Assembly (NCBI RefSeq): GCF_000027125.1
Contig: NC_017626.1
From: Escherichia coli 042
GTDB lineage: Bacteria; Pseudomonadota; Gammaproteobacteria; Enterobacterales; Enterobacteriaceae
Reading direction: 5' to 3' (one strand)
DNA: 64,000 bases
Made by a program: the position numbers and the translations under genes. The notes under the pieces are model-generated. The model ran no database searches, was not told the DNA's origin, and worked only from the letters and a program-made list of their open reading frames with translations. Shown here piece by piece: positions 31,547-32,617 of the stretch. Each line of letters opens with the position of its first letter. Position 1 is the first letter of the stretch.

Positions 31547-32617
31547 ATGCCAAATACATCTATTCACTTATCTCGCTGTAATATTTTACAAAATAATAAA
31601 TTGCAACCAGCAGAAGTTTACAAAGAATCACAACAAACCGCGAAACTTGAGATTTTTTGCGATGAGTTTCTAAAAATATCTCAAAGTAGATACGGGTTAT
31701 CAACCTCAGCAGACAGCATAGCTAATTTATTGGCTTTTTTCACGAAAGCCTCAGATGCAATTGATAGTATCAAGACCCAAAAAATTGACGTTCACAGTTA
31801 TGGTTTCGTACCAATAAGACATTTTGTCGAACATGTCATAACGTATAAAAATGAATTTGCAGCGGATTATGAACCCTATACCCTTACCTTTACCCGAGGT
31901 GAAAACAACGAAGGTATTTTGAGTGTCGAAAGCAAAGAAGGGTTTATTTCACAAAGAACAATAAACTTAAATGAATATGAAACTGCAATTAACATCATCA
32001 ATGAACATGTTATAAAAGAAAATATCCACAACACGGTCCAGTCACCGACAGAAAAAGACATTTCAAAAATAAACAGCTCTGATAAACCTTATAAAACCAG
32101 CAGTGAGGAAAGTATTAAAAGTCAACTTTACAGCGATCAAAAAAAATATACAGACCTGCTACTACATTCTGAGAAAAATACAGAATGGTACAAATACGCA
32201 TCCTCCGTGGAACGCTATGATAAATTCAAGAATTCTTCTAAGGAAATTAAAAATACCTACAAGCAAATTGTACAAGCGCAGAAAAAATTGAACCAAATGA
32301 AATACATAAATAAATTAAGTGGTGAGCTTATCGATATCGCCGACAAAAAGTTAGCACCATTAATAAATGATAGTTTCAGCTATACACGAGATTTCTTTGC
32401 TTACTCAAAACAGGAAAATAACATCTTCACGTTTGATAATTCTAAGTTTGAAGATCCAAAGGAAAAAAAAGGTTTAATGGTACAACACAGCAATGGACAA
32501 CTGGTTATTACTGGTGAATATTGTCCTGAAGGTGTGCAAACAGCATTCACTCAAGACCAATATGATAAATTAATAAGATACATTAATATTTTCTTTACTT
32601 TTCCGAAATGCGAATAA
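31547..32617 (+). CDS. Hypothetical AT-rich orphan protein (356 aa; alternative TTG start at 31511)
   Basis: Long ORF with AAGGA RBS 7 nt upstream of ATG; K/N/E/Y-rich, no signal peptide, no family recognised. Confidence 0.5.
   Translation: MPNTSIHLSRCNILQNNKLQPAEVYKESQQTAKLEIFCDEFLKISQSRYGLSTSADSIANLLAFFTKASDAIDSIKTQKIDVHSYGFVPIRHFVEHVITYKNEFAADYEPYTLTFTRGENNEGILSVESKEGFISQRTINLNEYETAINIINEHVIKENIHNTVQSPTEKDISKINSSDKPYKTSSEESIKSQLYSDQKKYTDLLLHSEKNTEWYKYASSVERYDKFKNSSKEIKNTYKQIVQAQKKLNQMKYINKLSGELIDIADKKLAPLINDSFSYTRDFFAYSKQENNIFTFDNSKFEDPKEKKGLMVQHSNGQLVITGEYCPEGVQTAFTQDQYDKLIRYINIFFTFPKCE

Follow-up and report, generated by a model that had tools for sequence, protein, structure and literature searches.

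Among the closest described counterparts of the gene analysed here are the accessory genes without homologues (ORFans) that enterobacteria carry in AT-rich, H-NS-targeted islands. The gene is a 356-codon open reading frame (ORF) located at positions 31547..32617 (+ strand) of a 64,000-nucleotide stretch of the Escherichia coli 042 chromosome (hereafter "the window"), which comprises the region around nrdAB-yfaE-inaA ... glpQ-glpT-glpABC. It shares with these counterparts a low guanine-plus-cytosine (GC) content, restriction to a narrow clade, a patchy distribution, a raised ratio of nonsynonymous to synonymous substitution rates (dN/dS, omega) and a poorly predicted structure, but differs from the general ORFan class in being unusually long for an orphan (356 aa) and in having no associated mobility genes. 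It is typical of E. coli O-island orphans and has already been catalogued, as an uncharacterised hypothetical: in O157:H7 Sakai it is listed as ECs_3123 (NP_311150.1, "hypothetical protein"), and the gene is not mentioned in the literature that we searched. Here we show that the ORF is real and coding and belongs to no known protein family. On balance, and with what we consider a somewhat better than even chance of being right, we interpret it as an old, dispensable, probably non-enzymatic orphan gene restricted to Escherichia, which is gradually being lost.

Sequence searches and phyletic distribution

The initial annotation had presented the ORF as an orphan with no recognisable domain, and the searches bear out both statements. 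Scans of the product against NCBIfam, PADLOC (PADLOC-DB v2) and PHROGs returned nothing at E-values up to 1. The matches that appeared elsewhere were rejected as noise, namely Val_tRNA-synt_C alone in Pfam (i-E 0.2), only gp53 (E 0.3) and uL15 (E 1.4) in the PDB sequence search with the whole protein, and only PF1455 (E 0.32) with profiles of the protein halves. Significant matches were thus lacking in all the sequence searches (Pfam, NCBIfam, PADLOC, PHROGs and PDB), and no clear relationship to a characterised family emerged from the family, PDB or Foldseek searches. A likeness of residues 108-155 to HicB-type N-terminal domains was dropped, as it found no support in Pfam.

True relatives of the protein are confined to Escherichia. 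A word-indexed search of 5.8 billion proteins yielded 23 matches, all from Escherichia and all with at least 83% identity, while an exhaustive HMMER scan of 1.84 billion cluster representatives yielded 14, 11 of which are fragments of the same gene (E <=1e-10). In what follows, matched proteins are designated by P numbers and comparison contigs or loci by L numbers. The twelfth HMMER match, P0034, is a short chimera that includes residues 8-46, and the last two, P0035 and P0036, are possible outliers that were both rejected. P0036 originates from contig L012, which exhibits ~74% identity and ~12% gaps across the ORF and its LysR and MFS neighbours; because the divergence and the gaps span the neighbours as well, we regard it as the product of an error-ridden long-read contig and not as a divergent homologue. 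P0023, an ENA metagenome protein of 408 aa in which the N-terminal part of a nucleotidyltransferase (PF01467/PF05636) is fused to residues ~12-136 of the ORF product at 97% identity, is probably a chimeric assembly.

P0035, a bacterial cadherin-repeat protein of 1001 aa, was matched with E 1.5e-7, a value that sums over 8 weak, non-independent repeats scoring -3 to 11 bits each. Residues ~102-140 of the ORF product (YTLTFTRGENNEGILSVESKEGFIS) do resemble the strand-turn-strand motif of these repeats ("...YSL..N..GLFSIDSKTGVIS"), but only ~35 of the ~100 residues of the domain align, with at most 11 bits per repeat, no cadherin Pfam model matches at E-values up to 10, and no other cadherin protein was found among the 1.84 billion representatives. 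We therefore treat this likeness as an apparent chance resemblance of motifs.

Searches of mobile elements and of other species gave a consistent picture. With tblastn no match to the ORF was found in 50,697 phage records, and the single match in PLSDB, NZ_CP141089.1, is a 4.94-Mb E. coli replicon filed as a non-mobilisable "plasmid" and evidently a chromosome. Among 100,044 species represented by one genome each, no copy was found except on a contaminant contig: the 3.5-kb contig L013 (JAIJJM010000334.1) of a metagenome-assembled genome labelled "Collinsella sp.", whose positions 2080-3147 are 100% identical to the E. coli ORF, almost certainly as a result of binning contamination. With no homologue outside Escherichia, the gene is a taxonomically restricted orphan.

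The reading frame and its "frameshifted" label

The ORF extends over 1071 nt from the ATG at 31547 to the stop codon ending at 32617, and a Shine-Dalgarno-like AAGGA (31535..31539, + strand), identified by direct reading of the sequence, lies 7 nt 5' of the ATG; the coordinates and spacing given earlier for a long ORF with a good ribosome-binding site (AAGGA-N7-ATG) are therefore correct. The ORF listing also contains an alternative TTG start at 31511, 36 nt 5' of the ATG, corresponding to a product of 368 aa; the ATG form is the start used in the Sakai and PGAP annotations. Annotations of the ORF were examined in 118UI, LSU61 and Sakai. The AT-richness reported for this region is equally evident, as the GC content is 0.330 in the segment 31440-32840 and 0.329 in the ORF versus 0.515 in the whole window, and the only 6 of 1252 sliding 1400-nt windows with GC as low or lower all overlap this segment. 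The stop-free run containing the ORF comprises 375 codons, whereas 2000 composition-preserving shuffles of the AT-rich segment gave a mean of 76 and a maximum of 185.

In strains with the same DNA as the window, PGAP marks precisely this ORF of 1071 nt as a frameshifted pseudogene, and it treats other non-O157 strains alike; intact alleles carry the label in the RefSeq annotations of L001, L007, L008, L009, L010 and L015. The reference protein used by PGAP is the O157 allele, WP_001358666.1, which occupies the same locus and shows 94% protein identity and 96.7% DNA identity to the window allele. In the O157 allele a run of eight adenines (A8) at 32139-32146 has become AAAGAAA (-1), and 27 nt downstream a run of five (A5; 32174..32178, + strand, as located in the alignment of the two alleles) has become A6 (+1). 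As a consequence residues 200-208 (9 residues) are changed, after which the frame is restored; the window allele lacks this change, and all non-O157 lineages, including the most divergent, have the frame of the window at residues 199-210. Because the O157 reference is itself a compensated double frameshift, the "frameshifted" label is an annotation artefact, and the window ORF, which is open for 356 codons, is not a pseudogene in the sense of that label.

Two side observations concern the rest of the window. The sole other comparably AT-rich stretch (24000-24499, GC 0.32) is intergenic, between nrdA and a 1246-aa ORF (20221-23961, - strand) that we take to be yfaL from the K-12 gene order, and it looks like an ordinary promoter region. 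Between yfaE and inaA (28530-28605, + strand) there is a sub-threshold Rfam match to naRNA4/CssrE (28.9 bits versus a gathering threshold of 59.5, E 0.048), which probably reflects a REP-type element.

Genomic neighborhood and history of the locus

Among 5,426 complete E. coli genomes, 1,045 (19%) contain at least 80% of the segment and 1,030 contain a 74-mer from the middle of the ORF. All these copies are chromosomal and single-copy, and in carriers the ORF is always found in the same slot between inaA and glpQ, while ~81% of the genomes lack it. Intact loci show the order inaA - MFS - LysR - 466-nt spacer (with a 43-codon ORF) - ORF - glpQ; in the window, the ORF lies between a truncated LysR gene and glpQ, i.e. 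next to glpQ as originally noted.

In K-12, the AT-rich segment 31422..32804 (GC ~0.33) is absent. It is the part, still present in the window, of a 1714-bp O-island-type segment (L001 5662-7375), whose right boundary is a GC-rich hairpin located downstream of glpQ, AGGATGGCG-catgaa-CGCCATCCT (32805..32828); the hairpin is present in K-12, and homology to K-12 resumes exactly there. The placement of the ORF in a strain-variable segment is thereby confirmed. Compared with the intact arrangement, K-12 has two separate deletions with the yfaH remnant (a LysR fragment) between them, one comprising the MFS gene and the 5' part of LysR (OI-97), the other, of 1,714 bp, starting just past the stop codon of LysR, reaching the hairpin described above and taking the ORF with it. 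Like the ORF segment, the immediately adjacent, strain-variable MFS/LysR segment is missing from K-12 and decaying in many strains, including that of the window.

The ends of the 1.7-kb segment carry no direct or inverted repeats of 8 nt or longer, and no integrase, tRNA or mobility genes were found. In intact loci there is accordingly nothing to identify a mobile genomic island, and IS1, where present, is a secondary insertion. The cryptic-clade Escherichia strain TW10509 and the L004/L005 lineage carry the OI-97 deletion and still have the ORF in this slot, the TW10509 copy being 5'-truncated. The synonymous divergence (dS) between the window and L004 is 0.096 for the ORF, 0.127 for glpQ and 0.099 for inaA. 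These results show that the ORF has occupied this chromosomal position since before the E. coli lineages and TW10509 diverged; any acquisition must be old, since divergent lineages have the ORF in the same slot and its dS is like that of the flanking core genes. The initial annotation had proposed horizontal acquisition from base composition and position in a variable segment. The foreign-like composition does suggest that the ORF was acquired horizontally, in which case this happened before these lineages split. The proposal is only partly supported, as no donor, phage or plasmid relative and no boundary repeats, integrase or tRNA accompany it, and the present variability is due to repeated loss (the K-12 deletion, IS1 insertions, frameshifts) and not to gain.

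Several kinds of disrupted alleles document this loss. The A8 homopolymer at 32139..32146 (+ strand, codons 198-200) is a frameshift hot spot, affected both by the O157 -1 change and by an A9 variant that truncates the product to 208 aa (P0016, tail IYRPATTF followed by the stop). A second A8 homopolymer is located at 32463..32470 (+ strand, codons ~306-308), where P0009 (309 aa, ending ...DPKEKKV) is truncated. Other truncated alleles end elsewhere than at the two A8 runs. Exact matches in complete genomes number 341 for A8 and 4 for A9, and the A9 allele has 541 member sequences in a read-assembly database. Phase variation between A8 and A9 was considered and rejected, as A9 occurs rarely and could in part be due to sequencing errors in the homopolymer. 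In 7 of 33 evenly sampled carriers, apparently members of a single successful lineage, the ORF is interrupted by IS1 after codon ~260, and another strain has retained no more than the final 30% of the segment next to a deletion associated with IS1. At least three separate IS1 events have occurred in the region, one in the ORF after codon ~260, one in the ORF-glpQ spacer, and one with a deletion from the MFS gene into the ORF (loci L014 3118-4965, in SCEC020001 and similar strains, L015 4332-5029 and L011 3248-3945). With the gene absent from about four-fifths of complete E. coli genomes and other copies broken by IS1 or poly-A slippage, it is dispensable.

In the window strain the ORF copy is intact, and its surroundings are not. 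Relative to intact loci, a 483-bp deletion (L001 5509-5991; junction at 31421..31422, as defined by blastn break points) truncates LysR to 245 aa, takes away the 43-codon ORF along with the 3' end of LysR, and spares no more than 126 nt of the ORF's native upstream sequence; none of the 12 best-matching complete genomes listed has the junction 31421/31422 as one contiguous piece. The MFS gene of the window contains an internal stop. The three-gene accessory block (MFS, LysR, ORF) as a whole is decaying in this strain.

The 43-codon ORF of intact loci (MTPGRNRYEAPDSLSKPIVESNDTPANSTQFTLEPFSIFKWDT, WP_001301743.1; L001 5808-5939, L006 3808-3939) lies ~180 nt upstream of the 356-codon ORF and is 98.5-100% identical in 11 of 11 loci examined, including TW10509. 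Where the translation covers the whole of it, the changes seen are nonsynonymous, and thus the constraint may act on DNA or RNA and not on the peptide.

Selection on the reading frame

Selection was analysed in seven alleles that are 90-99% identical in nucleotide sequence, leaving out the frameshifted stretch of O157 and using glpQ and inaA from the same strain pairs as controls. All seven alleles, compared as DNA, keep the 1071-nt frame. For the whole ORF, omega is 0.52 by NG86, 0.83 by LWL85, 0.70 by YN00, 0.76 by maximum likelihood (ML) and 0.86 by an event-based method weighted for transitions and transversions (P = 0.23 versus neutral). The corresponding values without the event-based method are 0.04, 0.05, 0.07 and 0.07 for glpQ, and 0.07, 0.07, 0.16 and 0.12 for inaA. 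The values are unevenly distributed along the ORF. Residues 1-155 gave 0.69 (NG86), 1.02 (LWL85), 0.73 (YN00), 0.91 (ML) and 1.03 (event-based), and residues 156-235 gave 0.60, 1.34, 1.08, 1.13 and 1.15, respectively, the last being not significantly above 1 (P = 0.35). Residues 236-356 gave 0.28, 0.35, 0.41, 0.51 and 0.45 (p = 0.022), and this C-terminal third (codons 236-356, 32252..32614, + strand) is the sole part of the ORF under significant purifying selection. The central 80 residues show the highest diversity; because dS is raised there too, we suggest that this region is a relaxed linker. Nowhere in the locus is variability lower than in the 300 nt preceding the ORF (pi 0.015). From the synonymous changes ~4.5 nonsense events would be expected under neutrality, and 0 were observed (Poisson P = 0.011). 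Taken together, these data show that the N-terminal two-thirds undergo amino-acid change at a nearly neutral rate, while the frame, the C-terminal ~120 residues and the upstream 300 nt are conserved.

Could the ORF be incidental, the AT-rich DNA serving as a regulatory or nucleoid-protein-binding spacer or encoding an RNA? The best-conserved part of the segment is indeed its non-coding upstream DNA, and amino-acid constraint is weak over most of the ORF. We nevertheless consider this very improbable: the length of the ORF compared with shuffles, the deficit of nonsense changes and the maintenance of the frame, the compensated frameshift, and the constraint on the C-terminal third all identify a coding ORFan, a ribosome-binding site is present, Rfam gave no match in the ORF even at E-values up to 1, promoter and terminator predictions in the locus did not exceed the shuffle expectation, and the repeat search detected only short pairs at chance level.

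A functionless relic is a more serious contender, and one that we rate as possible, though on the unlikely side. According to this explanation, function was lost before or during the diversification of E. coli, the sequence has since drifted neutrally, and many alleles are still open only because of a time lag. The event-based omega of 0.86 overall and ~1.0-1.15 over residues 1-235 does not differ from the neutral value, the ML omega of 0.76 contrasts with 0.07-0.12 in the neighbouring genes, the ORF is missing from ~81% of complete genomes and has been inactivated independently by IS1, A-run frameshifts and deletions, and in the window strain MFS and LysR, next to the ORF, show decay as well. 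A relic would, however, be expected to accumulate nonsense changes, of which there are none, and the compensation of the O157 frameshift, the significant excess of synonymous changes in the C-terminal third, the high conservation of the upstream region, and the survival of a 356-codon frame in DNA of 33% GC in lineages as distant as L004 and O157 all speak against it.

Predicted structure of the product

The product has a molecular mass of ~41 kDa and a pI of 6.3, and is composed of 10.4% K, 9.6% S, 9.0% I, 8.1% E, 7.3% N and 5.6% Y. The maximum Kyte-Doolittle hydropathy over 19 residues is only 0.86 (a transmembrane segment would have ~1.6), from which we conclude that it has no transmembrane segment and no hydrophobic signal-peptide core. 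Composition and hydropathy thus agree with the initial description of a K/N/E/Y-rich protein devoid of such features, and the protein can be inferred to be soluble and cytoplasmic.

AlphaFold2 modelled the full product with a mean pLDDT of 42.7 and residues 176-356 with 55.7, moderate confidence being reached only by a long helical hairpin that spans residues ~179-275 (pLDDT 60-78). In these models the N-terminal part appears to be helical and to be followed by a small beta unit, a variable linker rich in Ser and Lys, the two-helix hairpin (~179-275) and a small alpha/beta C-terminal module. Comparison of the model of residues 176-356 with the PDB using Foldseek revealed nothing at E-values up to 0.001, only generic helical hairpins. 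The predicted secondary structure hinted at a duplicated beta-beta-beta-alpha unit within the protein, but this was rejected: BLASTP gave no alignment, Smith-Waterman scores compared with those of shuffles had p-values of 0.25 (units) and 0.09 (halves), and hhalign assigned a probability of 0.1%. We found no conserved catalytic-looking motif in the product, and its cysteines differ between alleles, so that none is conserved. Since catalytic-type motifs are lacking, the cysteines are variable and the hairpin and the alpha/beta module form the constrained part, it seems more likely that the protein binds a partner via these two elements than that it catalyses a reaction.

The same data bear on the possibility that the gene was born de novo from AT-rich intergenic DNA in the Escherichia lineage, an origin that would explain its orphan status, poor structure and near-neutrality. 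No homologue is known among ~15 billion predicted proteins, AlphaFold confidence is low and omega is near 1, as this origin predicts. On the other hand, a frame of 356 codons is far beyond chance at 33% GC (the longest run in the 2000 shuffles reached 185), long regular secondary-structure elements are predicted and the C-terminal module is constrained, and the GC content of the segment, far below that of the surrounding genome, fits a foreign origin better than a local one. We consider a de novo origin highly unlikely.

Functional considerations

The roles of secreted effector, toxin or defence component had been offered initially as speculation, and no positive evidence was found for any of them, so that they are not supported. 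PADLOC-DB v2 contains no match to a known or candidate defence protein (0 families at E-values up to 1), and there is no partner gene in the window. The inaA-glpQ slot does not resemble a defence island or hotspot, as in the sampled genomes it holds only the ORF, the MFS/LysR pair, IS1 or deletions. Nor is a type II toxin-antitoxin system apparent: the 356-aa gene is single, matches no family and has no partner ORF in the window, and the 43-codon ORF of intact loci, upstream and non-overlapping, is not arranged as in such systems. For a type III effector, Pfam and NCBIfam gave no family match and the locus is chromosomal backbone between inaA and glpQ, devoid of prophage genes. At the N-terminus the first acidic residue is E23, and the 22 residues before it are rich in Ser, Asn and Gln; such a composition resembles, and is compatible with, a type III secretion signal, but is not specific to one.

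These observations have to be set against the idea of a conflict gene of a new fold, i.e. a toxin, a secreted effector or an abortive-infection-like factor that acts against phages as a single gene, whose variable centre would be shaped by an arms race and whose patchy presence would reflect fluctuating selection. Low GC content, restriction to a lineage, absence of homologues and patchy distribution are typical of conflict genes, the central 80 residues are the most diverse, with omega of ~1.1-1.3 in the methods that take account of transitions and transversions, and the N-terminus bears the resemblance just described. Positive selection at the centre is, however, not significant, and the raised dS applies to the same residues; PADLOC and PHROGs gave no match, there is no partner gene, mobile-element context, phage copy or plasmid copy, the slot holds one cargo plus deletion variants and not alternative cargos, and lineages without the neighbouring LysR virulence regulator have kept the ORF. 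We regard a conflict gene as unlikely. Quite improbable, too, is the specific version in which an Escherichia-specific protein of new fold would act alone as a conditional conflict factor, either in abortive infection or phage exclusion or as an effector directed at hosts or competitors, with a hypervariable central linker under diversifying selection and with the conserved C-terminal module as its functional end.

For the old, dispensable orphan gene that we favour, the benefit to the cell would be conditional and small, which would explain its recurrent loss, and it is probably poorly expressed or repressed by H-NS, as predicted from the GC content of 0.33. Four points weigh against this interpretation. 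The omega of the whole gene is indistinguishable from 1 (P = 0.23). The test of frame maintenance is only moderately significant, and one of its alleles, L004, was picked via its full-length protein. Silencing by H-NS is assumed from base composition only. Finally, both structure models are of low confidence (mean pLDDT 42.7 and 55.7), which makes the proposed architecture and the preference for binding over catalysis weak.

Implications

If a function in defence or in interaction with the host were true, it would define a new family, and nothing that we found points there. The artefact behind the PGAP label is systematic and concerns hundreds of genomes, including most carriers, so that E. 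coli pan-genome and pseudogene counts inherit the error. By-products of the analysis are thus an explanation of the pseudogene mislabel, the recognition of loss rather than gain behind the variability of the locus, and a conserved upstream element. The gene itself provides a clean, datable case in which a long orphan gene stays open while most of its sequence evolves near-neutrally, and its several independent routes of loss (deletion, IS1 insertion and poly-A slippage) make it useful for work on the decay and persistence of orphan genes.

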